Made by a program: the position numbers and the translations under genes. Below the pieces are notes generated by a model. It saw nothing but the letters and a program-made list of their open reading frames with translations, did no database searches and was not told where the DNA came from. Below, one piece after another: positions 46,597 to 58,381 of a stretch of 64,000 bases of DNA (the stretch's first letter is position 1; each line of letters begins with the position of its first letter). Origin of the DNA: a bacterium (GTDB taxonomy: Bacteria; Electryoneota; Electryoneia; Electryoneales; Electryoneaceae); contig OY769902.1 in assembly GCA_963669175.1 (NCBI GenBank), forward strand, positions 5,248,001 to 5,312,000, in the 5' to 3' direction.

Positions 46597-49500
46597 ATGC
46601 GCAACCCGGGAGGGGATTTGCGGTTTGTAGCTTTGTTCACGTTGATCATGATGGCGTTTTCTATTCATACCGGCTCGGCAGCCGAAGACGATCTATCCTA
46701 TGACCTCAACTACCTGGACCAGATGGGCATCACCATGGAACCCGGTTCAGGACGCCCTTACATCTATTCCGGGCGCGGTTCCTCCTTTTTTTACGGTTCT
46801 ACCCGCACCTTCACCGAAGAAGGGTGGATGGGTTTCCACTGGGACCGTCGCAAGCTCTGGGACGACTGGATGGTCGTGGTTGATGGCGATCCGTTGGACC
46901 GAAACCTCGCCACAGTGACAGTCTACCCGCACCAAGTCGTGTTCAACTGGCCCGAGGGGCATGAACTGAGCATCCGTCTGCTCGGCGTGAAACGTGATGA
47001 CCTGCAATTCGTCTTCTCCACCCCGAAAGTGGACGTCGAATGCAACCTGTTCCTCATGTTCCCGCAGGGTTCGGATATCCCCGAAGCAAAGCGTGAAAAA
47101 CCTCTCCGTTTCCTGCCTGTCATGGTACCAACCGGTGAGGATACGGTCGGTGTCGCTTTCGGCAGCAAGACCACGTTCTCCGTGCGACAGATTCAACCGG
47201 TGCGGAATTCCGCCCACGGTCCCGACAGTGGGCAACTGGCCGGAAAAACCATCTTTGGTATCGGCTTCCCGGTGAACCGTTTTGAGGCGACAGTCGTCTA
47301 CGGTCAAGACCCGCTCTACCTCGAACAACGTCTGACCGATCTGTACAACCACCTTGGCGTGGAATGGCAGAACCGTCAGCATTGGCTGCTGGACGAGATC
47401 AACCGTGCCGTGTTCAAATGCTCCGACGAACGTTTCACCCTTGCGGTAAACTGGGCCAAGGTTTCGCTTGCCAGGCTGTTCTTCGAGGATGAAAAGGGCG
47501 TTTTGCTCTGGGCGGGACTGCCCTGGTTCAACAACTGCTGGGGACGTGATACGTTCATTTCCCTTCCGGGGGCGTGCCTGGTGCTGGGCAAATACGATGA
47601 CGCCAAAGCGATCCTGCAACGTTTCGCCGAATGGCAGATGCGTAATCCCAACTCCCCTGACTACGGTAAAATACCCAACCTGGTCTCCGGCGGCGAGATC
47701 ATGTACAACACCGCTGACGGCACCCCCTGGTTTGTCCGTGAGGTGTTCGAATACGGCCTCTACAGCGGTGATACCGACCTGTGGCAAGCCTATCTGCAAC
47801 CGAACACAGGGGCGGTCTGGTTGGCCAATGAGGGCACCATCGCCCATCGTCTCGATCCGCTCGGGTTCGTGGTGCATGGCGACGCCGATACATGGATGGA
47901 CGCGAAGGGCATGGACGGAGCCTGGTCACCACGCGGGAATCGTGCGGTCGAAATCCAGGCGCTATGGATTACCCAGCTCGACGTATCCATCAAAATGGCC
48001 GAAGCTTTGGGTGAATCCAACCCGGTCCCCGCCGCCACGTTGGAACGCTGGAAGCAACAACTCGAACAATCTAAAACCAGTTTCCAGTCGGAGTTTGTCA
48101 AGCAGGATCCACCCGGCCTGTATGATCACCTGAACTCGGATGGCGCCCCGGACGACAAGATCCGCCCGAACCAGCTCTTCGCCATCAGCGCGGTGTCCGA
48201 TACCCTGCTCAGTGATGAGGTAGCGGAAGCGGTAGTCAACGAGGTGCGTGAACATTGCGTCTATCCCTGGGGTGTGGCCTCACTGGCGCAGAATGATCCC
48301 GACTTCCACCCCTACCACCAGACCTGGCATTATCCCAAAGACGAAGCCTATCACAACGGGATCGTGTGGACCTGGCTGGCGGGACCGTTCATCACAGCCG
48401 CGGGAGGTTCGTGGCCGCTGACCGAGCAAATGGCGACGCAAATCCTCGACTGGGGCGCGCCGGGCACACTGAGCGAAAACCTGGCTGCGGTACCACGTGA
48501 TGGCAATGATCATCCTTATTGCAGTGGAACTGTATCCCAGACCTGGTCGCTGGCGGAATTCATCCGAAACCTGTACCAGGATTACCTGGGGGTGCGGCCT
48601 AGCTTTACTGAGTACGAGTTGATCGAAAAAGAGAAGATTCCAAGATGGATTTTGAATCCTCATGTACCTATAGCTTGGAATTCTGCACAGGTGTTAGTTC
48701 CTGTCAAGGATGCTTTTTTAAAAGCATCCTGTCATCGAGTAGATCAGAAACCGGTTGGATCGGTATTCTATAAATATGTGAATACTAGCGGAATTGCTAT
48801 TGAGAAGTTGGTTTTGCCTGTCAGAGCAATTCCCATTAAACCCATAATTCCAATAGACATTGGCCTCAAAAATCAATGGATGATAACGCCTACGGACGGT
48901 AATTGGGTAATGTATGATATGGGTGGTGATGAGTTATACCCCGGTTCGACCGACTTCCCCGCTAGTCCCGCCAATGAGGATATGACTTTCCTCGAGCCTC
49001 ACATCGCGCCGGACCTGAAATCGCTTGCTCCACCGGACTGGTACCTGATGTCGCAGGATGAGGTGACGGTGCAGCCACGCGCCAGCATCCCGGTCTGTTC
49101 GGTGGTGGACGAGACCAACGATGATCATGGCGGTTCCGGTTACACCTATCCCAAGGCGGCGGTGTTCAAGCCGGGCATCCTTGACCTGACTGGGTTCGTA
49201 GTGCGTGAGGATGGCCTGCGTATCTATTTCGAGCTGGATTTCGCGGCTCTGGTCAATCCCGGCTGGCACAAGGAGTACGGCTTCCAGCTCACCTACGCCA
49301 CCATTTGCATCCATTCCGGGACCAAGGGCGAAAAGACCCGTACCGACGTAGGACGCAATTCTGGCTGGAAGCTGGACAAGGATTTTGCGGCGGATCGGTT
49401 CATCTATGTAGGCGGCCCGATTGACGTGGAAGATGCGTCAGGAAAAATGCTGGCGCAGTATGTCCCTCGTGACGCGTCAGGACGTATTGGCGATGTGGAC

Positions 49501-49722
49501 CGGGGAATCATACGCTTTGGCATTCCGAGGCGCTTCCTGCCGGGTGATCCGTCACAATGGAAAATAACCGTACTGGTCGGTGGGCAGGATGATCATGGCG
49601 GCGCGGGAACCGGGGAGTTCCGTTCGGTGGACAAGGAAGCGTCCGAGTGGATCGGTGGCGGTGGTGGACCGGATAAACACAATGTCTACGACTGGCTCAT
49701 GATCGACCCTTTACAGGAATGA
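46597..49722 (+). CDS. Amylo-alpha-1,6-glucosidase (GH133-like) with C-terminal glucodextranase/DOMON-like domain
   Basis: AGLPWF..WGRDTFISLPG, YNTADGTPW, TWMDAK, RPNQLFA, YHNGIVW, SQTWS; DDHGGSGYTYP...DLTGF. Confidence 0.85.
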   Translation: MRNPGGDLRFVALFTLIMMAFSIHTGSAAEDDLSYDLNYLDQMGITMEPGSGRPYIYSGRGSSFFYGSTRTFTEEGWMGFHWDRRKLWDDWMVVVDGDPLDRNLATVTVYPHQVVFNWPEGHELSIRLLGVKRDDLQFVFSTPKVDVECNLFLMFPQGSDIPEAKREKPLRFLPVMVPTGEDTVGVAFGSKTTFSVRQIQPVRNSAHGPDSGQLAGKTIFGIGFPVNRFEATVVYGQDPLYLEQRLTDLYNHLGVEWQNRQHWLLDEINRAVFKCSDERFTLAVNWAKVSLARLFFEDEKGVLLWAGLPWFNNCWGRDTFISLPGACLVLGKYDDAKAILQRFAEWQMRNPNSPDYGKIPNLVSGGEIMYNTADGTPWFVREVFEYGLYSGDTDLWQAYLQPNTGAVWLANEGTIAHRLDPLGFVVHGDADTWMDAKGMDGAWSPRGNRAVEIQALWITQLDVSIKMAEALGESNPVPAATLERWKQQLEQSKTSFQSEFVKQDPPGLYDHLNSDGAPDDKIRPNQLFAISAVSDTLLSDEVAEAVVNEVREHCVYPWGVASLAQNDPDFHPYHQTWHYPKDEAYHNGIVWTWLAGPFITAAGGSWPLTEQMATQILDWGAPGTLSENLAAVPRDGNDHPYCSGTVSQTWSLAEFIRNLYQDYLGVRPSFTEYELIEKEKIPRWILNPHVPIAWNSAQVLVPVKDAFLKASCHRVDQKPVGSVFYKYVNTSGIAIEKLVLPVRAIPIKPIIPIDIGLKNQWMITPTDGNWVMYDMGGDELYPGSTDFPASPANEDMTFLEPHIAPDLKSLAPPDWYLMSQDEVTVQPRASIPVCSVVDETNDDHGGSGYTYPKAAVFKPGILDLTGFVVREDGLRIYFELDFAALVNPGWHKEYGFQLTYATICIHSGTKGEKTRTDVGRNSGWKLDKDFAADRFIYVGGPIDVEDASGKMLAQYVPRDASGRIGDVDRGIIRFGIPRRFLPGDPSQWKITVLVGGQDDHGGAGTGEFRSVDKEASEWIGGGGGPDKHNVYDWLMIDPLQE

Positions 49723-50382
49723 TTCACAAGATGTACAGGATGAACTGATAATTAACAGGATGATAGGATAGTAGGATTTCAAGGATGAAAGATATTAGGG
49801 TAAAGAAAGTAGAAAAGGTAAAGACAGCAACAAATTGACAGAACTCAAATGAAAGCTATATTTATTGACACAATTCCTAATTGCTAATTAATTGAAACTG
49901 ATTCCTAATTACTAATTTGAAAGTATTAATTCCTAATTTCTAATTCTTAATTACTATAGCGGTTATCGAAAGTTTCTGCTGATTGAATAGCCGTCAGCCT
50001 GCTTCAGCAGGCTCCTCTTAGCACCCGGCTTTAGCCGGGTGAAGGGAGATATTCGAAGATATGAGCGAGCTTTAGCGTGCTTGCATGTGGCAAAGAATAC
50101 AAATCAGGAAAGCAACCTGAAGGGCGCTCGATATGTTTGATTTCTGCTACCCCCGGCTGAAGCCGGGGGCTAAGAGGAGCAGGCTAAAGCCTGCTAAACT
50201 TACAAGTTGGTAGTGTGTTAGTGGTTTCCAGAGGATTACGATTCAAGATAGCTACTGCCGTGGAACTGTTGCATTGTTATAATCACTCAGCCCTATCAAC
50301 CTGAAACAGCAAGAACCTCCAAGAAGTACTATAATTAAAGAATTTATCCTTGATATCCTTCTATCCTATTATCCTGTGAGTC
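49721..50382. repeat. AGGAT-nonamer inverted-repeat element, copy A
   Basis: Left arm 49755-49789 pairs with right arm 50343-50377 (31 of 35 positions); encloses an A-rich tract, TTCCTAA heptamers and a REP doublet. Confidence 0.85.
49996..50195. repeat. REP/REPIN-like doublet
   Basis: AGCCTGCTTCAGCAGGCTCCTCTTAGCACCCGGCTTTAGCCGGGTG is inverted relative to CCCCCGGCTGAAGCCGGGGGCTAAGAGGAGCAGGCTAAAGCCTGCT; each arm has two GC hairpins. Confidence 0.75.
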
Positions 50383-50411
50383 AAGTTGTTGAAAGTGAGA
50401 GGAATTCGGGA

Positions 50412-52637
50412 ATGCAGAGATCATTGTTTGGAATTCTTGTGTCTTTGTTGCTACTCGCGGGGTGCAGCAAAGCGCCGGTACCATACATGGACAACGGTGA
50501 GGTGGTATTCAGCTACCGTTCTGCGTCGGCGAAGACTGTCGCTTTGGCGGGAGCGTTCAACGGCTGGTCGGACAGCGCCACACCCATGACTCGCAACGAT
50601 ACCGGTCTCTGGACCGCACGTGTCGGGCTGTCGGTCGGCTACCATGAGTACCGTTTTGTGGTTGACGGCAACTGGATCGCCGACCCTGTCAATCCGGCGA
50701 CCGTGATCAACAACTACGGCGAGCCGAACAGCGTTCTCTATGTCACCCCCACCGCGACCGTCGAGCTGAAAGCCCCGAAAACCGGATCGGACGGCCTGGT
50801 CGAGATGCCCGGCGGAGAAGGTTTCCTCTATGTCAACCTGATCTGGCACCAGCATCAGCCCAACTATTACGACGCCGAAAAGGATCAGCTTATCGCGCCG
50901 TGGGTACGCACCCATACCACCAAGGATTATTACGACATGACCGCGATGCTGAAAGAGCATCCGGATATCCATGTGACCGTGAACCTGACCCCGGTTCTGA
51001 TTGAACAGATTGACCTCTACACCGACCGCCTGGGTGAGTTTTATTCCAGCAAACGTAAACGCCTTGACGCCGACAAATTCCTCGCGAAATACAAGGGCCA
51101 CACCGACCCCTGGATTGACCTGATGTTAACCGATACGGAGGAGTTCGGCCCGGAAGAGGATCAGTACCTGGCACGTAACGAGTGGTCCTGCTTCAGTGTG
51201 GCCCGCACCATCATGAACCGTTTCCCGGAATATGTGGCGTTACGGGAAAAAGACCCCGAAGATTTTACCGTGCAGGACAAGCGTGACCTGAAATGTTTCT
51301 TCTGGCTGGCGCTCTTCGACCCGGATTTCCTGCGTGGCCCGGTGCAGTTGTCGGAAAGCACCACGGTGGATTTGAGCGATTTGGTCACCGAGGGGCCGGG
51401 GGAAAGCTGGACTGTGGGACGTCACTTCTCTGAAGATGATGCGCTTCGACTGGTGTCGGACTTCTACCTGATCGCCTATCGTTTGAAATACCTCCACAAG
51501 GAGATGATGTACAACCCGGCCAGGCATACCGGTCAGGTTGAGATGATTACCACACCCTTCGCGCACCCGATTCTGCCGTTGATCTATGACCTGCACGCCG
51601 GGAAAAGCCCGAACGACCAGGCTCCGGACAGTGTACAGTTCTCCCGGCCGCATGACGCGCAGTGGCATGTCACCCAGGCCAACCAGAACTATTTCGACTG
51701 GTACGGCACCTATCCCAGGGGGATGTGGCCTGCCGAGGGTTCGGTTTCCGCGGATGTGCTCAAGTTGTTTACCCATGCGAATATAGAATGGATTGCTACC
51801 GGCGATGGCGTATTAGCCAAGTCGTTGCCGGAAGGGTTAAAGGCCACTACCCCGTACAAGTTGAAAGACGGTGAAGGCGGTGAAATCGCGATCTTCTTCC
51901 GTGATACCCATCTGTCCGACCTGATCGGGTTCCGTTACCAGCGCTGGAGCCCGGAGCAGGCCTCGGAAGACCTGATTCGTCAGATTCTGGCCCGCGCCCC
52001 GGAAGCGAAAACTGATACGGCCTGCATCACCATCCTGCTGGATGGCGAAAACGCCTGGGAATGGTACGAGCAGGACGCTGACGCTAAGCAGTTCCTGAAC
52101 CAGGTATACACCAAGCTGGCGGAAAAGCAGAACGAAGGACGTCTACTAACGGTCACCCCCATCGAATACCTTGAAGGCAACCCGGAGCGTGGGGTTCCTC
52201 CCCACCCAATTGCGAATCTTCCCGAAATTGAATCCCTCTGGCCGGGATCGTGGATTTATGGGGATTTCAGTACGTGGGTAGGGGAAGATGAAGAGAATCG
52301 TGCCTGGTGGTGGCTAAACAAGGTGCGCCAGGATTACGCTGCCGCGACTGAAGGCTTGTCCCGACAGGAAGAACTGGCCCATGATGACGCCCTGCGGGCG
52401 GCGTGGGCCGCCATGGCCGCAGCGGAAGGGTCCGACTGGTTCTGGTGGTATGGCACCGATCAGAACACCGGGGAAGGGGATTCGCGTTGGGATCAGCTTT
52501 ATCGCGCGCATCTTGAAAGTGTTTATCGTATCTTGCAGGACGATGGCATCGAGATTGAAATGCCCGAGATACCGTCACTTATGGATACCGGGTCTGACGC
52601 GAGTAGTGAAGGCGGGGCGATGGCCCGCGGGGAGTAG
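50412..52637 (+). CDS. GH57 amylopullulanase-like lipoprotein with N-terminal CBM48
   Basis: Lipobox LAGC; LAGAFNGW/YRFVVDGNW; WHQHQP, HPILPL, GMWPAEGSVS, LDGENAWE, AEGSDWFWW. Confidence 0.9.
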   Translation: MQRSLFGILVSLLLLAGCSKAPVPYMDNGEVVFSYRSASAKTVALAGAFNGWSDSATPMTRNDTGLWTARVGLSVGYHEYRFVVDGNWIADPVNPATVINNYGEPNSVLYVTPTATVELKAPKTGSDGLVEMPGGEGFLYVNLIWHQHQPNYYDAEKDQLIAPWVRTHTTKDYYDMTAMLKEHPDIHVTVNLTPVLIEQIDLYTDRLGEFYSSKRKRLDADKFLAKYKGHTDPWIDLMLTDTEEFGPEEDQYLARNEWSCFSVARTIMNRFPEYVALREKDPEDFTVQDKRDLKCFFWLALFDPDFLRGPVQLSESTTVDLSDLVTEGPGESWTVGRHFSEDDALRLVSDFYLIAYRLKYLHKEMMYNPARHTGQVEMITTPFAHPILPLIYDLHAGKSPNDQAPDSVQFSRPHDAQWHVTQANQNYFDWYGTYPRGMWPAEGSVSADVLKLFTHANIEWIATGDGVLAKSLPEGLKATTPYKLKDGEGGEIAIFFRDTHLSDLIGFRYQRWSPEQASEDLIRQILARAPEAKTDTACITILLDGENAWEWYEQDADAKQFLNQVYTKLAEKQNEGRLLTVTPIEYLEGNPERGVPPHPIANLPEIESLWPGSWIYGDFSTWVGEDEENRAWWWLNKVRQDYAAATEGLSRQEELAHDDALRAAWAAMAAAEGSDWFWWYGTDQNTGEGDSRWDQLYRAHLESVYRILQDDGIEIEMPEIPSLMDTGSDASSEGGAMARGE

Positions 52638-52640
52638 TTC

Positions 52641-52962
52641 GATTCACAATTCGATTCACAAGATGGACAGGATGAAAACACAATTAACAGGATGGATTTT
52701 ATTGTATTTACAGGATGCAAAGGATGATTAGGATATCAAGGATGAAAGAAGCAAATAAGGCAAAAAAGATAAAGGAAATAGAAAAAGCGAAAAAAATTCT
52801 TTTTAGATCTAATAACATCTTAATTTGTTAATAAAATTCCTAATTTCTAATTCCTAATTATTAATTAAGCTGTTATCCTTAATATCCTATCATCCTATTA
52901 TCCTGTGAGTTAAAAAGAATCATCCTGAATATTTTAGTTATATCTTGTATATCCTGTAAATC
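52641..52962. repeat. AGGAT-nonamer inverted-repeat element, copy B (no cargo ORF)
   Basis: GATTCACAAGATGGACAGGATG...CAAGGATGAAA left; TTATCCTTAATATCCTATCATCCTATTATCCTGTGAGT...ATCCTGTAAATC right. Confidence 0.85.
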
Positions 52963-52981
52963 CCAGCGTGAGGGGAAAACG

Positions 52982-55201
52982 ATGCGGATTTGGATCGCAT
53001 GTTTGTTACTGGTCAGTATCCTGGTCAGTCCGGGGTTCAGCGAGGAGATGAACATCTCCTTCTGGCATCAGCTCAACTATGCCGAGCGGGTGGTGCTGGA
53101 TGAGCTGATCGAGGAATACGAGGCGACACATTCGGGGATCACGGTCACTCCGATTTACCGTGAGACGGAAGAACTGCGTTCCGCGTACCAGAACTCAGCG
53201 CTTGCGGGCACCGGGCCGGAACTGGTGCATGGCCCCTCGGACCAGATCGGTCCCTTTGCCACCATGAGCATTGTACGTCCGATGGAGACCCTCCTGTCCC
53301 AGGCCGAGCTGGACCGCTTAAACCCGCAGGCGCTGGTCTGGTTCAAGGGCGAGCACGACAGCACCGAACATCTCTACCAGGTCGCGGACCGCCTGGGCAA
53401 TCACCTCACCCTGATCTACAACAAGAAGTACATCACTGAACCACCAACGACCACCGACGACCTGATCAGGATCGGGCAAGAGCAGACAGTTGATATCAAC
53501 GGCGACGGTAAAATCGACCGTTTCGGCCTGGTCTGGAACTTCACCGAACCCTATTTCTTCATTCCCTGGCTGTCTGGGTTCGGCGGCTGGGTGATGGATG
53601 ATGAATACCGTCCTACGCTCGATACCGAAGCCAATCGCAACGCCCTGCAATTCATCATTGACCTGCGTGACAAGTACAAAATCACCCCGCAAAACGCCGA
53701 CTACGAAACCGCGCACAACCTGTTCCTGGAAGAGATGTCGACCATGATCATCAATGGCGACTGGTCCTGGGGCACGTATATCGATAACGGTATCGACATC
53801 GGGGTGGCACGCATCCCGATGGTATCCGAAACCGGGCTGTGGGCCGCGCCGATGGTATCGCCACGCGGGTACAGCATCAATGTGAACATCGAAGAGGCCA
53901 AGCTCGAACCGACACTGGAACTGCTGCGATTCTTCCTGAGCGATGAAGCCCAGCTAAGGATGGCGTTGGCGACCAACATCACCCCCACCAGCAAGACGGT
54001 ATTCGACACGCCGGAACTACAGGCCAACCCGATCATGCAGGCCAGCCTGAGCGAGATCGAGGTTTGCAAACCAATGCCGGTCGCCCCGGAACTGCGTGCG
54101 ATCTGGGACTCCATGCGTCCCTTTTACCAGGCCGCGCTCGGGGGCACCTCCACCGCTGCCGAATCTGCTGCGGGGATGCAGAAAGAAGCGATACGCAAAA
54201 TCCGTGAGATGAACGAGATCACCCAACCGGCCGCCTATGTCGTGATCATGAAGATCTTCGTGTTGTTGGCGCTGGTGGTGGGGATCTGGTTCACACGTTC
54301 AAGCTGGGCAGAGCTGATTCGTGACCTGCGCAAACGTCCGTTCATCTACTGGATGGTCATGCCGGCGTTCATTGTCATCGTGTTGGTGGTGGTTTATCCG
54401 TTTATCTATAACGTAATCCTGTCCGTCTCGAACATGGGCCTGCGGAACTTCGCCAACTGGGAAATAGTCGGCTTGCAGAATTACGGGCAGGTATTCCTTC
54501 ACCCGGATTTTTATACGGTCCTGTTCAAGACGATTGTCTGGACTGTGGTCAATGTGGGATTTCATGTGATCCTGGGCGTGTTCCTGGCCCTGCTGATGAA
54601 CCGTGTCCTGCCGGGCAAAGGCGTGATTCGTACCCTGCTGATCCTGCCCTGGGCGGTGCCGCAGTACATCACCGCGCTGACCTGGCGTGGGATGTTCAAC
54701 CAGGAATACGGCGCGGTGAACCTGATCATCGCCAAGTACCTGCACATGCCGATTGTCAACTGGCTGGGGTCGCCCTTTGAAGCGTTCCTCGCCTGTATCA
54801 TCACCAATGTCTGGCTGGGCTTCCCCTTCATGATGATCGTGGCGCTGGGCGGGTTGCAGTCGATTCCGTACCAGTTGTACGAAGCGGCGGACATTGACGG
54901 CGGCGGATGGTACACCAAGCTGACCAAGATCACGCTACCCCTGCTCAAACCGGTGATGACCCCGGCGATGGTGCTGGGCATGGTCTGGACCTTCAACCAG
55001 CTCAATGTTATCTGGCTGGTATCGAACGCGGGCGAGCCCTCGGACAAGACGCATATCCTGGTGTCGTTCGTATATAAGAGCGCTTTTAACCTGTACCGGT
55101 ATTCCTATGCCGCTGCGATGAGCATGGTGATCTTTGGTATCCTGCTGGCGTTCGGGATCTTCTTTATCAAACGGTCCAAAGCGACTGAAGCGGTTTACTA
55201 G
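52982..55201 (+). CDS. Maltose/maltodextrin ABC transporter, substrate-binding protein fused to MalF-type permease
   Basis: Signal peptide, SBP domain (LIYNKK, MIINGDW), then TM helices with LQSIPYQLYEAADIDG EAA loop. Confidence 0.85.
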   Translation: MRIWIACLLLVSILVSPGFSEEMNISFWHQLNYAERVVLDELIEEYEATHSGITVTPIYRETEELRSAYQNSALAGTGPELVHGPSDQIGPFATMSIVRPMETLLSQAELDRLNPQALVWFKGEHDSTEHLYQVADRLGNHLTLIYNKKYITEPPTTTDDLIRIGQEQTVDINGDGKIDRFGLVWNFTEPYFFIPWLSGFGGWVMDDEYRPTLDTEANRNALQFIIDLRDKYKITPQNADYETAHNLFLEEMSTMIINGDWSWGTYIDNGIDIGVARIPMVSETGLWAAPMVSPRGYSINVNIEEAKLEPTLELLRFFLSDEAQLRMALATNITPTSKTVFDTPELQANPIMQASLSEIEVCKPMPVAPELRAIWDSMRPFYQAALGGTSTAAESAAGMQKEAIRKIREMNEITQPAAYVVIMKIFVLLALVVGIWFTRSSWAELIRDLRKRPFIYWMVMPAFIVIVLVVVYPFIYNVILSVSNMGLRNFANWEIVGLQNYGQVFLHPDFYTVLFKTIVWTVVNVGFHVILGVFLALLMNRVLPGKGVIRTLLILPWAVPQYITALTWRGMFNQEYGAVNLIIAKYLHMPIVNWLGSPFEAFLACIITNVWLGFPFMMIVALGGLQSIPYQLYEAADIDGGGWYTKLTKITLPLLKPVMTPAMVLGMVWTFNQLNVIWLVSNAGEPSDKTHILVSFVYKSAFNLYRYSYAAAMSMVIFGILLAFGIFFIKRSKATEAVY

Positions 55202-55205
55202 GCAG

Positions 55206-56316
55206 AATTCACAGGATGAACAGGATAAAAAACAATTAACAGGATGATAGGATAGAAGGATATCAAGGATGAAATTTAATATTGACAAAAGCACAAAAAA
55301 CAGCATTAGAGATATAATCGACAATAGCGACAAGTCACTAATGAAATATTATCTACCTTTATATAACTGTATAATTAGATCATTTGAATATAATTTTTCA
55401 CAAGGAAAAGATATAGAGAAAACAAGGATATTAACAATATTCTTTTCTCAAGTGTTAAATATTTTACCTGGATTATTAACATCAATCAACAATAGATACA
55501 TTTACGCATCAAATATATTCGTAAGATTATTACAAGAACGAATGTATGAAGGTAGATATATTATTCTAGTTGATAATGCATATTATGATTTTATGCTTAT
55601 AGAGTGGATGCAAAGAGCATATTTATATAAATCGAATCGACAATATGTAAGTTGGTTATATGGATCTGATAAAGGAACAGAACACATATTTACTCAGCAG
55701 GAAATAGATGCCAGTAATAAAAAAATAGAAAAGGCTTTATTAAATGATGGCCTGACTTACTTGAGAAATCACCCAGAGATCAGCAATGACACTATTAGTT
55801 CTATAAATCAATATCATGATCTACTTTGTCATCCAAAGATAAAGGAAATGAAAAGTTCATGGTATAAATCTCGCAAGAGAAATATCAACAACTTTGATGA
55901 TTTAAAAAGTTTTGTTATCAAGAATTTAGAGAATGATAAAATTATGTTTAGCGAATATGCTTTTGATTTTCCAGGAAACAGAGAAAAATCCAGTGCTGTC
56001 ATACACAGTAGCTGGTATAGATTAAACCACATGATTAATATTAATTATAGAGATGACTATAACGATGTTATAGAATTTGTAATAGACAATAACGAAGATG
56101 AGTCTTTAAAGATATTAAAAAATTGTCTTATTTACATTTATGGTATCTACAGGAATATGATAAACTATATCCCGACAAAAAAAATGAATATCGAAATTGA
56201 TAAAAATATTACTGATATATACGGTGTTAATATTACCAAGAATTCTTAACTTTCTATTATTTTATTATCTTGTTAATCATGTATTTATCTTGTATATCTT
56301 GTTAATCCTTGTGAGT
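55206..56316. repeat. AGGAT-nonamer inverted-repeat element, copy C, enclosing a cargo gene
   Basis: Left arm 55206-55274; more degenerate right arm ATCTTGT/ATCCTTGTGAGT at ~56265-56316. Confidence 0.8.
55269..56249 (+). CDS. AT-rich orphan, weakly DUF5677/HEPN-like helical protein
   Basis: 326-aa ORF, very AT-rich; FVRLLQE and REKSSAVIH motifs; family call is tentative. Confidence 0.55.
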   Translation: MKFNIDKSTKNSIRDIIDNSDKSLMKYYLPLYNCIIRSFEYNFSQGKDIEKTRILTIFFSQVLNILPGLLTSINNRYIYASNIFVRLLQERMYEGRYIILVDNAYYDFMLIEWMQRAYLYKSNRQYVSWLYGSDKGTEHIFTQQEIDASNKKIEKALLNDGLTYLRNHPEISNDTISSINQYHDLLCHPKIKEMKSSWYKSRKRNINNFDDLKSFVIKNLENDKIMFSEYAFDFPGNREKSSAVIHSSWYRLNHMININYRDDYNDVIEFVIDNNEDESLKILKNCLIYIYGIYRNMINYIPTKKMNIEIDKNITDIYGVNITKNS

Positions 56317-56335
56317 AAAGTTGCAGGAGTGATAG

Positions 56336-57169
56336 ATGCAGAAAGACAAGCTGTGGGTTCGGGTGATCATATACGCGATCCTGTTCGTGTTCATCGTGAT
56401 ATCGGTGTACCCGGTGATCCGTGTGCTCTCGATTTCGCTACGTCCGGGCGACCGTCTGTTGAGCACCTCGCTGGCGATCATCCCCGATGACGCGACCCTG
56501 TCGAATTTCGTGGTGCTGTTCACCGAACGTCCGTTCCTGCGTTGGGTGTGGAACAGTACGCTCGTCACCACTGCTGTAACCCTTCTCGGGGTGGCGTTGG
56601 CGTCCACCAGCGGCTACATCATGAGCCGGTATAAGTTCGTTGGACGCACGGCCGCGATGACCGCGATCCTCACCACGCAGATGTTCCCTGCGACCATGCT
56701 GCTGCTGCCGATGTACATCATTATCAGCAAGATGGGCCTGCTGAACAGCTATATCGGGCTCATTGTGGTGTACAGCGCAACCGCTCTGCCCTTCTGTGTC
56801 TGGACCATGAAAGGGTATTACGATACCATCCCCTATTCGCTGGAAGAAGCGGCGATGATTGACGGCTGCAATCGTTTTGAATCGTTTTACAAGGTCGTGC
56901 TGCCGCTGGTCAGCCCGGCGCTGGTAATTACCGGCCTGTTCAGCTTCATCTCGAGCTGGTCGGAATACCTGGTCGCGGCTCAGATCCTGCAGGACCCGAA
57001 GATGTATACGCTCCCCATCGGGCTGAAGCAGTTCCAGCAGAACATGAGCACCGACTGGGGGCTGTACTCGGCGGGGGCGCTGGTGGTGTCCATCCCGGTG
57101 ATCGTCCTGTTCATGATCGCGAATAGATGGCTGGTTAGTGGACTTACTCTCGGTGGAGTTAAGGAATGA
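56336..57169 (+). CDS. malG: Sugar ABC transporter permease (MalG-type)
   Basis: WVWNS, TQMFPA, DTIPYSLEEAAMIDG, LVSGLTLGGVKE. Confidence 0.85.
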   Translation: MQKDKLWVRVIIYAILFVFIVISVYPVIRVLSISLRPGDRLLSTSLAIIPDDATLSNFVVLFTERPFLRWVWNSTLVTTAVTLLGVALASTSGYIMSRYKFVGRTAAMTAILTTQMFPATMLLLPMYIIISKMGLLNSYIGLIVVYSATALPFCVWTMKGYYDTIPYSLEEAAMIDGCNRFESFYKVVLPLVSPALVITGLFSFISSWSEYLVAAQILQDPKMYTLPIGLKQFQQNMSTDWGLYSAGALVVSIPVIVLFMIANRWLVSGLTLGGVKE

Positions 57170-57468
57170 TTCACAAGATGAACAGGATAAAATAACAGGA
57201 TGAACAAGATTTGACTCACAGGATGGTAAGATAGAAGGATATCAAGGATGAAAGAAGTAAAAAAGGTAAAAAACGTAAAGAAGGTAAAGAAAGCCAGGAT
57301 AATATCTAAAAATATTCTTGAGAAATATAACTCCTTATTTCTAATTTCTAATTCCTAATTCCTAATTCCTAATTAAGAAGTTATCCTTATCATCCTATTA
57401 TCCTATCATCCTGTCAGAAGGTAGTTTATCTTGTTAATCAGCAGTTAATCCTGTATATCCTGTAAATC
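57168..57468. repeat. AGGAT-nonamer inverted-repeat element, copy D
   Basis: Outer GATTCACAAGATG...ATCCTGTAAATC and inner GACTCACAGGATG...ATCCTGTC pairs; (TTYCTAA)5 at ~57338-57374. Confidence 0.85.
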
Positions 57469-57475
57469 GAGAGAG

Positions 57476-58120
57476 GTGAGAGTGGGAAAGAAGTTGTGTC
57501 CGAAGGTGATTCTTGAGGGAACACGGTTGACATTCAAGACCGAGATTGCTTTTGCCCTCAACGAGCACCCTCGTGTGGTCGGCCCCAAGAAATACCGTTA
57601 TCACAGCCCGGTAATTTCTGCGGAATGGTGCGGGTTCACCAATTTCCCGTGGGGACGTGGCCCGATCAACTTCGATCCCGAGACCGAAGAAGCGCGAGCG
57701 ATGGACGTCTACCGTACCTGGGCGCACCTGATCGAGCTGCAACGTTATTATTCGTGGATCGTTGACCGTTTCCATATCTCGACCAGGCTTTACCAGCGTC
57801 ACGTGCACGGCAAGGAATATGATTTCGGCTGGCTGGAAGAACGTCTGCACAACCTCGGCTTTCACCTGGTCGTCTGCCATCGTTCTTCGGATTCGTTCAA
57901 GGCCGCACGCAAGGAACGGTTGAAAGTATCGGGCAAACCATCTCAGTACGATAACTTGCAGGCGTTTATCGACGAGCAGAGCGAATACATTGAAGAGGGG
58001 CGGAAATCCCTGTTGCCCTGCCTGGAACTGGATGTGTCGGACAATTCGGTTGCGAACGCTGCGGACCGTATCGCAGACTGGCTGGGGCAAAATGGCGGCC
58101 TGTACGCGAAAGAGCCATGA
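57476..58120 (+). CDS. Hypothetical protein, degenerate nucleoside-monophosphate-kinase-like P-loop fold
   Basis: KVILEGTRLTFKTE and IVDRFHIS resemble the thymidylate kinase P-loop and DR motifs; host-like codon use. Confidence 0.5.
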   Translation: MRVGKKLCPKVILEGTRLTFKTEIAFALNEHPRVVGPKKYRYHSPVISAEWCGFTNFPWGRGPINFDPETEEARAMDVYRTWAHLIELQRYYSWIVDRFHISTRLYQRHVHGKEYDFGWLEERLHNLGFHLVVCHRSSDSFKAARKERLKVSGKPSQYDNLQAFIDEQSEYIEEGRKSLLPCLELDVSDNSVANAADRIADWLGQNGGLYAKEP

Positions 58121-58126
58121 TTTTTT

Positions 58127-58355
58127 CTCACAGGATACTAGGATATAAAGATATCAAGGATAAAGAATTATATTTAAGCTTAAAAGAAATATGTTCATAC
58201 TGTAATATATCTATCAACTATTAATTCTTAATTCTTAATTCTTAATTTATTTTCATCATCCTTTTATCCTAATATCCTGTTAGGCAATAGTAGTTAAGTG
58301 TGGCGACAGCCGAGAATAGAGTGTATCTTTCACAATCCTGTACATCCTGTAAACC
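58127..58355. repeat. AGGAT-nonamer inverted-repeat element, copy E
   Basis: CTCACAGGATACTAGGATATAAAGATATCAAGGATAAA left; (TTCTTAA)3; ATCCTTTTATCCTAATATCCTGT...ATCCTGTACATCCTGTAAAC right. Confidence 0.8.
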
Positions 58356-58381
58356 GGATGTTTGAACTTGCGGAGAGAACG

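Follow-up and report, generated by a model that had tools for sequence, protein, structure and literature searches.

Palindromic arrays of short tandem units at five junctions of a starch-uptake operon and their possible relation to intervening sequences

Five consecutive gaps between the genes of a starch-uptake operon hold copies of a genus-specific, genome-wide family of hairpin-forming repeats. Their arms consist of tandem 8-9-nt units with an AGGAT core, opposed by ATCCT arms, and the same arms bracket a small gene for a predicted nuclease-fold protein (GxxExxY) elsewhere in the genome. As this layout resembles that of the self-excising inserts of ribosomal RNA genes, the repeats may show how such inserts spread. 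The observation in the original prediction, that all five junctions carry long AGGAT-unit inverted repeats, was confirmed. Its interpretation as a repeat-bounded system for cassette insertion or exchange was only partly supported.

Repeat elements in the operon junctions

The elements were examined in a 64-kb stretch of the genome (the window). The AGGAT-unit left arms and ATCCT-unit right arms were seen in all five gaps, and a profile search (nhmmer) with arm profiles found 13 arms in the whole window, all of which lie inside the five gaps (E from 3e-14 to 0.04). The arms were classed as A or B, and the inner modules as GTAAAGAAG-type (K) or TTCCTAATT-type (T) units. The host operon and its elements are as follows.

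46597-59449 (+), the host operon (by Pfam): GDE_C/GH133, GH57, an SBP-permease fusion, a permease, a 214-aa ORF of no family, and MalK.
49721-50386 (+), element 1, GH133 to GH57 junction: short outer B-type half arm at 49721-49750, A arm at 49751-49795, K units at 49800-49825, T units at 49924-49952, a GC-rich REP-like doublet at about 49955-50200, closing A arm at 50336-50386.
52641-52962 (+), element 2, GH57 to SBP-permease junction: B arms at 52650-52677 and 52702-52749, T units at 52838-52866, A arm at 52864-52912, and a short outer B-type end running to 52962.
55203-56316 (+), element 3, SBP-permease to permease junction: B arm at 55203-55230, A arm at 55235-55279, an AT-rich cargo ORF at 55269-56249 (326 aa) whose ATG lies in the last AGGATG unit, and a degenerate right arm at 56262-56316.
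57168-57468 (+), element 4, permease to 214-aa ORF junction: outer B-type units beginning at 57168 and overlapping the stop codon, A arm at 57210-57254, K units at 57257-57291, T units at 57339-57374, A arm at 57372-57418, B arm at 57448-57468.
58124-58355 (+), element 5, 214-aa ORF to malK junction: A arm at 58124-58170, T units at 58219-58247, A arm at 58257-58288, B arm at 58329-58353.

The elements start at or within 14 nt after the upstream stop and end 20-35 nt before the downstream start. Several details of the earlier description required correction. The right arm of gap 3 is degenerate, with ATCTTG units, and the listed GTG starts at 50376 and 58298 lie inside elements; in-frame ATGs at 50412 and 58382, each preceded by GAGG-type ribosome-binding sites, are the likely starts. 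The claim that all five elements share one orientation holds for the inner modules, in which the GTAAAGAAG-type precedes the TTCCTAATT-type, but is trivial for the arms alone, because an inverted repeat reads the same on both strands.

The prediction that the arms pair into stems was supported by RNA folding, although to different degrees. Element 2 folds at -90.7 kcal/mol (z -6.6) and element 4 at -77.7 kcal/mol (z -4.15), with 0 of 100 shuffles as good in each case, while the fold of element 5 is weak (z -1.9, with 6 of 200 shuffles as good). In addition, the spacers between AGGAT cores often mismatch across the two arms. An Rfam search of the window from 49 to 59 kb gave only a sub-threshold Acido-Lenti-1 hit in the REP-like part. 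Neither the 326-aa nor the 214-aa ORF matched a Pfam, NCBIfam or PADLOC family; the 326-aa ORF appears DUF5677-like by language-model features only (0.95). No transposase, integrase or other recombinase family was found in the 20 larger ORFs scanned between 24.7 and 64 kb, consistent with the original prediction that none is encoded nearby.

A genus-specific family of dispersed repeats

The repeats are more abundant than expected by chance. The AGGAT-to-AGGAT spacing in the genome peaks at 9 nt (216 cases) and 8 nt (91), whereas every other spacing up to 30 nt has 34 or fewer. Clusters of three or more units number 251, against 39 in a reversed-genome control, and the exact four-unit pattern occurs 63 times, against 0 for the backwards control. 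A run of five or more occupied junctions arose in 3 of 2000 shuffles; our crude ORF calls flagged only three of the five junctions automatically, and the five come from reading the sequence.

Genome-wide, 285 arms were found (173 B and 112 A), and these form 64 pairs. Of the 285 arms, 157 had no partner within 6 kb, a finding that had been named in advance as counting against the cassette reading. Four of the five window elements are empty, as are most copies in the genome. Of the 226 intergenic arms, 72 lie between convergent genes, 138 between co-directional genes and 16 between divergent genes, while the intergenic regions of the genome number 672, 2664 and 671 in these classes; the arms are thus enriched downstream of genes, and most strongly between convergent genes. 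The left and right ends have different consensus sequences, and the arms of one element are no more complementary to each other than arms from different copies (0.733 vs 0.785, permutation p = 1.0), as expected for copies of a master element. No covariation or compensatory change was therefore apparent in the arms. No target-site duplication was apparent in 21 elements, and the empty sites found were too diverged to align.

Association with GxxExxY and four-helix-bundle genes

The original prediction mentioned similar arms around GxxExxY and four-helix-bundle genes, and this link was verified here and widely. The only PF13366/TIGR04256 (GxxExxY) gene of the genome lies between nuoH and nuoI and is bracketed by A arms at -46 and +392 nt; no gene is bracketed by B arms. 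Two of the three four-helix-bundle (S23p, PF05635) genes are bracketed by the units that form the inner modules of the window elements, namely K units (-93/+390) and T units (-106/+371), although none of the five window elements contains such a gene.

The GxxExxY protein is assigned to the PD-(D/E)XK nuclease superfamily by PF13366 (4.5e-40) and TIGR04256 (7.6e-42). D71, E81 and K83 are invariant in 41 of 41 sequences, and the structural model has a pLDDT of 90.4. The best Foldseek matches of this predicted structure are Cas4 SSO0001 (2.5e-5), MGME1 and lambda exonuclease, together with Holliday-junction resolvases, while a sequence search of the PDB returned no relative.

In relatives and in metagenomes, both gene families are usually bracketed by inverted arrays of tandem 7-10-nt units. 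Flanks with an own inverted-repeat score of 18 or more were found at 35 of 64 metagenome GxxExxY loci (cross-locus control, 7 of 64), at 19 of 27 relatives' GxxExxY loci (1 of 27) and at 20 of 26 relatives' four-helix-bundle loci (0 of 26). Exact tandem 5-mers occurred in the flanks but in 0 gene bodies. Nine loci from other phyla gave only chance microRNA-hairpin hits in Rfam.

Moreover, the dispersed repeats of each lineage share the unit motif that flanks its own GxxExxY gene. AGGAT x3 arrays number 296, 198, 71 and 23 in the compared genomes G000 to G003, whose nuoH-nuoI GxxExxY genes have AGGAT arms, while six genomes with other flank units have 0-1. CACGRAA arrays number 22, 21 and 10 in the three genomes of genus g11 whose GxxExxY gene has such flanks (G013, G014 and G011), and 0 in G000 and G019. 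CACAGA arrays occur in all six genomes predicted from their flanks (G006, G018, G024, G027, G033 and G036) and are absent in 32 of the 41 genomes searched. As these relatives are kin, however, the motif tracking is not a set of independent tests. CsrA-type GGA sites, DnaA boxes, IHF sites and type IIS restriction sites were also considered as readings of the unit motif, but were rejected once other lineages showed quite different units.

Comparison with sister species

The content of the elements differs between sister species at shared junctions, so the description of the elements as slots is partly fair. The SBP-permease to permease junction holds 1.1 kb with the 326-aa ORF in this genome, but a 170-nt ORF-less element in the sister species G001. 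At the junction of element 1, a roughly 93%-identical relative in sequencing run X3 has 142 nt where the window has 565 nt (49889-50454). A second cargo difference, at 1686-1688 kb, proved to be a nested REP-like repeat with an IS110 element inside the loop. The REP-like repeat is the target of the genome's IS110 copies, and IS110 was rejected as the mobiliser because its 12 copies target this different repeat.

G001 has an element at the junction of element 4 with the inner part inverted, and the inner part is inverted in G001 at two of the three orthologous sites that were read. This inversion between species was considered in relation to invertible promoters (invertons), which have both orientations present in one population and an invertase. 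The gene order differs in G001 around malK, which has no element upstream. Twelve syntenic junctions are occupied in both G000 and G001, G001 alone is occupied at two junctions that were read, and G001 has a tandem doubling at one site. A synteny search of 538-558 kb against G001 gave scattered contigs and no usable junctions. In assembled contigs from four sequencing runs, which cannot exclude rare forms, the many joints came from other copies of the repeat and gave no reliable inversion joint and no usable circular or excised form.

Origin of the elements

Our preferred explanation, held with moderate confidence, is that the five elements are mostly ORF-less copies of a family of modular palindromic repeats, each arm being an array of 3-5 tandem units, and that this family descends from selfish elements of the intervening sequence (IVS) type, in which a small gene (a GxxExxY nuclease-fold protein or a four-helix-bundle S23p protein) sits in the loop of a stem built from tandem-unit inverted repeats. 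In this view, ORF-less derivatives multiplied through the genome much as REPINs do relative to their single-copy RAYT gene, and the single GxxExxY gene, kept between nuoH and nuoI, is the best candidate for the factor acting in trans. Copies would persist between a stop codon and the next ribosome-binding site, and downstream of genes, where they do not break genes. They would be co-transcribed, with the arms pairing into a long imperfect hairpin that RNase III probably trims or removes, by analogy with 23S rRNA intervening sequences; alternatively, the hairpin may stabilise the upstream message. The loop would be a safe landing place in which further DNA accumulates (a REP-like doublet, IS110 and a DUF5677-like ORF), giving the appearance of a cassette slot.

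The analysis itself establishes the anatomy of the elements, the size of the family, the association of genes with arms, the tracking of motifs across lineages and the turnover of content between species, whereas the mode of copying, the role of GxxExxY and RNA processing, including any excision by RNase III, are inferred from sequence. No act of movement was seen in the genomes compared, and the junctions occupied in both species fit old, stable residents as well as they fit active copying. Likewise, the excess of B arms, which bracket no gene, and the possibility that GxxExxY is a passenger rather than the enzyme weigh against this explanation. The genome has an rnc gene.

Three alternative hypotheses were considered. 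It is unlikely, although possible, that the elements are ordinary MITEs, non-autonomous derivatives of a DDE-type insertion sequence whose terminal inverted repeats are the arms, moved by a transposase encoded elsewhere. Dozens of similar 150-320-nt copies with distinct end consensus sequences, the differing occupancy between species and the tandem doubling in G001 would fit this hypothesis. However, none of the 64 arm pairs encloses a transposase that uses the arms as its ends (the one transposase inside a pair is IS110), the arms are arrays of tandem units with variable spacers, and the same architecture brackets two non-transposase gene families across phyla. A comparably unlikely hypothesis is that the elements serve the host as binding sites or processing stems that set the relative stability or translation of the cistrons, possibly bound by the toroidal four-helix-bundle pentamer or by GxxExxY, and are kept by selection. 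It is favoured by the position of the elements exactly between a stop codon and the next ribosome-binding site, by the occupation of the same junctions in two species whose genes are only 72-85% identical, by the agreement of inner-module orientation relative to transcription in 6 of 7 classifiable elements and by cargo ORFs that start inside the last AGGATG unit. Lone arms in co-directional gaps also carry AGGAT on the sense strand in 56 regions against 29, although our gene calls are crude and paralogous junctions inflate this count. The inversion of the inner part between species, the absence of compensatory change, the enrichment between convergent genes and the lack of any matching Rfam family argue against it.

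The integron-like system of the original prediction, in which a site-specific recombinase recognises the folded arms and inserts, excises or swaps the DNA between them, appears least likely. The differing content at shared junctions, the five consecutive occupied junctions, the hairpins and the location of some GxxExxY genes between two complete hairpins, like cassettes between attC sites, are in its favour. Nevertheless, no dedicated insertion or exchange system was found: no recombinase family was present in the ORFs scanned around the operon, most elements are empty, many arms are unpaired and one apparent cargo is a nested repeat plus IS110.

A more speculative possibility, which remains doubtful, is a cross-phylum class of IVS-type selfish elements, each consisting of a small gene, either a GxxExxY PD-(D/E)XK nuclease or a toroidal four-helix-bundle S23p/Avd-like protein, bracketed by inverted arrays of tandem 7-10-nt units that the protein would recognise. 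The arrays would diversify together with the gene and seed populations of ORF-less hairpin repeats in intergenic and intra-operon DNA. This would be a second, nuclease-based counterpart of the REPIN-RAYT system, would assign a function to two large families of unknown function and would explain where the 23S rRNA intervening sequences come from.

These results bear on two very common small protein families without an assigned role, GxxExxY (PDDEXK_3), listed as 'Unknown' in the 2012 superfamily survey (PMC3424549), and the S23p four-helix-bundle proteins, as well as on the origin and spread of 23S rRNA intervening sequences, still described as unclear (PMC4990558). As this genome shows the same architecture outside rRNA, in large copy number and with arms that match those of the resident GxxExxY gene, both questions become open to direct experiment. 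We found no paper that links these genes to dispersed repeats, supplementary files and non-open journals aside; the tandem motif strings occurred in none. In practical terms, these repeats break short-read assemblies, as the operon of G001 is split over several contigs, several of which end near arm arrays, and they create false extended ORF starts.

Comparison with known systems

Integron gene cassettes with attC sites likewise have imperfect inverted repeats that bound promoterless cargo inside a transcribed array. Here, no integrase was found among the ORFs scanned, most sites are empty, and arms occur alone and genome-wide. BIMEs, Correia/NEMIS and other MITE-like intercistronic repeats, such as the REP units between malE and malF of Escherichia coli, are also mosaic, co-transcribed hairpin repeats between the cistrons of an operon, and Correia elements are reported to be RNase III substrates. 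The present elements differ from these in their unit-array arms, their nested modules and their association with GxxExxY and S23p genes.

REP and REPIN populations with their RAYT gene (PMC3116915, PMC3337134, bioRxiv 10.1101/2022.05.22.493013) share with this family short palindromic intergenic repeats, often as inverted doublets, in tens to hundreds of copies, a single-copy, vertically kept gene bracketed by the same repeat, and lineage-specific repeat sequences. However, the bracketed gene here encodes a predicted PD-(D/E)XK nuclease fold rather than a Y1 HUH transposase, and the arms are arrays of tandem units rather than a single hairpin. None of the 10 Y1_Tnp genes of the genome is flanked by the arms; nine have no module within 2.5 kb and one has an element 1.1 kb away, and a RAYT was therefore rejected.

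The closest published analogue is the 23S rRNA intervening sequence carrying an S23p ORF in Coxiella and Leptospira (PMC4990558). The present elements sit in mRNA operon junctions and other intergenic DNA, not in helix 25 or 45 of 23S rRNA; the single 23S gene is 2954 nt against a 2925-position model, and no arm lies in it. Most copies have lost the ORF, modules of several kinds are nested, there are hundreds of arms, and a second gene family (GxxExxY) shows the same bracketing. In both cases, terminal inverted repeats form a long stem and tandem short units lie beside the ORF. The Coxiella insert is a selfish element with a 28-bp stem and tandem GACAGAT heptamers, variable in number, next to an ORF of the four-helix-bundle S23p family (PF05635) in the loop, and it is tolerated inside an essential transcript because RNase III cuts the stem, with cleavage at the first repeat.

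The repeat arrays in the five operon junctions

The five intergenic gaps singled out in the original prediction all open with a purine-rich array of 8-9-nt units built on an AGGAT core and close with the complementary ATCCT array, and the observation itself is thus confirmed. Profiles built from genome-wide copies detected 13 arms in the 64-kb window, all of which lie inside these five gaps. Two arm types could be distinguished: type A has a unit spacing of 8-8-9 and ends in CTCACAGG or TTAACAGG, while type B has a spacing of 9-9-9 and ends in ATTTACAGG or ATTCACAGG. In the window, the B units lie outside the A arms, and between the A arms lie a GTAAAGAAG-type array (K), AT-rich filler and a TTCCTAATT-type array (T), in the same order in every element that has them.

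Chance does not explain this arrangement. The AGGAT-to-AGGAT spacing in the genome peaks at 9 nt (216 cases) and 8 nt (91 cases), compared to 34 or fewer for any other spacing up to 30 nt. In addition, unit clusters number 251, against 39 in a reversed-genome control, the four-unit pattern occurs 63 times, against 0 for its control, and a run of five or more occupied junctions arose in only 3 of 2000 shuffles.

The host genes form a starch/maltodextrin locus, consisting of GH133, GH57, an SBP-permease fusion, a permease, a 214-aa ORF and MalK. The 214-aa ORF (window 57476-58120) has no Pfam, NCBIfam or PADLOC family, but is conserved (81% nucleotide identity) and syntenic in G001, a genome of the same genus. 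No transposase or integrase family was found in the 20 ORFs scanned around these genes.

A genome-wide family of repeats

The genome (a single contig of 5.45 Mb with 50% G+C, hereafter C1) holds 285 arms at an E-value of 0.05 or better, 112 of type A and 173 of type B, and the arms are thus a genome-wide family rather than a local device. Pairing each forward arm with the next reverse arm within 6 kb gave 64 pairs and left 157 arms unpaired. The recurrent layouts are short A..A or B..B elements with 40-150 nt of AT-rich loop, composite A-B-A forms, 'A B' half modules, and lone B arms placed right after intrinsic terminators. Other tandem-unit modules were also found: K (30 clusters against 0 in the control), T (53 against 16) and a CTTTGCG-type module, R (51 against 0). 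Particular arrangements of the arms and modules were observed at the following loci:

C1:155375-155500, 1911222-1911345 and 2125361-2125490: lone B arms that begin directly after the T-run of intrinsic-terminator-like hairpins, with no partner arm nearby.
C1:548356-551606, 552596-556436, 703712-709734 and 1108548-1112611: ordinary host genes of normal G+C (thioesterase, DUF362, a DcuC carrier, a glycosyltransferase) bracketed by facing half modules 'A B ... B A' that lie 3-6 kb apart; if these pair in RNA, they would resemble the processing stems around rRNAs.
C1:2208242-2209262: a tandem array of six B arms with a 135-nt period, enclosed by one A arm on each side.
C1:14638-22750: four tandem paralogous genes of about 750 aa, each separated by the same 'B A B' triple of arms, all in one direction; the junction was probably duplicated along with the gene.
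C1:334270-334310 and 526830-526860: a further module of CTTTGCG-type nonamers, ending in GTGAAAC, which follows many A-B half modules; in G022, another genome examined, the same kind of array brackets a GxxExxY gene (locus L243).
C1:5097540-5097590: yet another tandem-unit array (ACTTTACA-type), in a junction where G001 instead carries an 880-nt composite of K-type, T-type and A modules.

Based on crude longest-ORF gene calls, 72 of the 226 intergenic arms lie between convergent genes, 138 between co-directional genes and 16 between divergent genes, while the genome has 672, 2664 and 671 such regions, respectively. Thus, the arms favour the 3' side of genes and avoid promoter regions. The two ends of type A elements have different consensus sequences, and the arms of one element are no more complementary to each other than arms from different elements (0.733 vs 0.785, permutation p = 1.0). 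The copies therefore look like descendants of a master element, and not like stems kept by compensatory change. No target-site duplication is visible.

Association with two small gene families

The association of similar arms with GxxExxY and four-helix-bundle genes, which had been suggested in the original prediction, holds. The only GxxExxY gene of the genome (PF13366 at 4.5e-40, TIGR04256 at 7.6e-42) is bracketed by A arms at -46 and +392 nt, and its start codon lies in the last AGGATG unit. This gene sits between nuoH and nuoI, and another A element follows nuoI. Of the three four-helix-bundle genes (PF05635), one is bracketed by K arrays and one by T arrays, while the third is flanked by direct repeats of a GTGAAAAAAG-type array. 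One of these three genes (C1:896757-897071) carries an in-frame TGA and may therefore be decaying, which parallels the reductive evolution reported for the Coxiella S23p ORF. Thus, the window elements combine the arms of the GxxExxY gene with the arms of two S23p-type genes.

In the GxxExxY protein, D71, E81 and K83 are invariant in 41 of 41 aligned sequences. The predicted structure is confident (pLDDT 90.4), and its best structural matches are PD-(D/E)XK nucleases, namely Cas4 SSO0001 (2.5e-5), MGME1, lambda exonuclease and Holliday-junction resolvases, whereas a sequence search found no solved relative.

Inverted arrays around these genes in other lineages

A search of 185,579 species genomes for three to four AGGAT units returned at least 117 stretches, the titles of which name many phyla. 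Of these 117, 35 have an opposed array next in line (28 of them with loops of 150 nt or less), 67 have a partner by a looser rule, and 10 are long arrays that may be coding or plain tandem repeats. Five enclose GxxExxY genes. Subsequently, starting from the protein instead, 80 metagenome loci and the loci of the relatives were read. The flanks are inverted arrays of tandem 7-10-nt units whose sequence differs by lineage, including AGGAT, AGGGGAT, CACGGAT, CGCGGAT, CACAGAG, CACGGAA, GTTGCGA and many more. An own inverted-repeat score of 18 was reached in 35 of 64 metagenome GxxExxY loci (7 of 64 for cross-locus pairs), in 19 of 27 GxxExxY loci of the relatives (1 of 27) and in 20 of 26 four-helix-bundle loci of the relatives (0 of 26). 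Exact three-copy tandem 5-mers occurred in the flanks but in none of the gene bodies. In the genomes G001, G002, G003 and G006, the GxxExxY gene lies between the same conserved coding flanks as in the genome under study (G000), as read from sequence, with nuoH and nuoI identified by Pfam in G000; the gene is therefore vertically kept there.

The dispersed repeats track the flanks of the resident gene. Three-unit AGGAT arrays number 296, 198, 23 and 71 in G000, G001, G002 and G003, all of which have AGGAT arms at the nuoH-nuoI gene, but only 0-1 in G005, G006, G009, G011, G013 and G014, whose GxxExxY flanks use other units. Similarly, CACGRAA arrays number 22, 21 and 10 in G013, G014 and G011, the three genomes of genus g11 whose GxxExxY gene has such flanks, and 0 in G000 and G019. 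CACAGA arrays occur in all six genomes predicted from their flanks (G006, 8; G018, 3; G024, 3; G027, 7; G033, 3; G036, 25); in addition, G023 has 14 and G014 has one simple repeat, while the other 33 of the 41 genomes have 0. As all these genomes are kin, the observations represent a consistent pattern rather than a set of independent tests.

Turnover between species

The genes of G001 are 70-85% identical to those of the present genome. Both genomes are occupied at 12 syntenic junctions that could be compared, but the content differs. The SBP-permease/permease junction holds a 170-nt ORF-less element in G001, against 1.1 kb with a 326-aa ORF here. The inner K/T part is inverted at the permease/214-aa ORF junction and at the 389.6-kb junction, and one site has two tandem copies in G001 against one here. 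At 1686-1688 kb, the present genome carries extra A arms, a REP-like repeat and an IS110 copy inside the loop, where G001 has an element of roughly 150 nt. Two junctions that were read are occupied only in G001, and three more look so from the arm list alone, although these comparisons were chosen because G001 has arms at those places. In addition, a relative about 93% identical, found in a metagenome run, has 142 nt where the first gap, between GH133 and GH57, has 565 nt.

The IS110-family element (DEDD_Tnp_IS110 + Transposase_20) is present in 12 near-identical copies (C1:1687302, 4286277 and 10 other places) and inserts next to a conserved ...ATCGAATCAGCAATA.CTT | CAACTATA context that belongs to GC-rich REP-like repeats. 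Two of the IS copies sit inside A/B elements. The same REP-like doublet, without the IS, fills the loop of the element in the first gap (window 49955-50200), where a sub-threshold Rfam match to Acido-Lenti-1 RNA was also found (window 50150-50185; 22.9 bits, gathering score 37, E 0.098).

Alternative explanations

Ordinary MITEs remain possible. However, no transposase uses these arms as its ends among the 64 pairs, IS110 targets a different repeat, and none of the 10 Y1_Tnp genes is flanked by arms. A host-serving role in RNA would be consistent with the placement of the elements, their shared occupancy in two species and a sense-strand bias of lone arms (56 vs 29), but the inner inversions, the lack of covariation and the enrichment between convergent genes argue against it. 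The original prediction of a cassette insertion or exchange system is only partly supported: the content differs between species at shared junctions, but an integron-like system lacks a recombinase among the 20 ORFs scanned around the operon, and most sites are empty.

Proposed relation to 23S rRNA intervening sequences and REPINs

The published Coxiella 23S intervening sequence (IVS) is a selfish insert with a 28-bp stem of terminal inverted repeats, tandem GACAGAT heptamers, variable in number, next to the S23p ORF, and RNase III cleavage at the first repeat; S23p itself is a toroidal homopentamer (PMC4990558). The elements described here share the sequence features of this insert but differ in their location, as the single 23S gene of this genome carries none. 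An rnc gene is present. The window elements fold into long imperfect hairpins, with fold z-scores of -4.2, -6.6 and -1.9, and they lack a U-tract after the stem, as read from sequence, so they are not intrinsic terminators. Open-text literature searches, which did not extend to supplements or to journals outside the collection searched, found no paper that links these gene families to dispersed repeats.

Thus, the most likely explanation is that the elements are ORF-less derivatives of IVS-type elements, tolerated in operons because they land between a stop codon and the next ribosome-binding site. Once transcribed, they would probably be trimmed by RNase III or act as stabilising hairpins, and the GxxExxY nuclease-fold protein is the best candidate for the trans-acting factor. 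The loops plainly accept other DNA, and this explains the slot-like appearance of the junctions. While the anatomy and size of the family, its association with the two gene families, the tracking of unit motifs across lineages and the turnover of content between species rest directly on our analyses, the copying step, that role for GxxExxY and the processing of the RNA are inferred. In this view, the derivatives have multiplied in the genome much as REPINs do relative to a single-copy RAYT.
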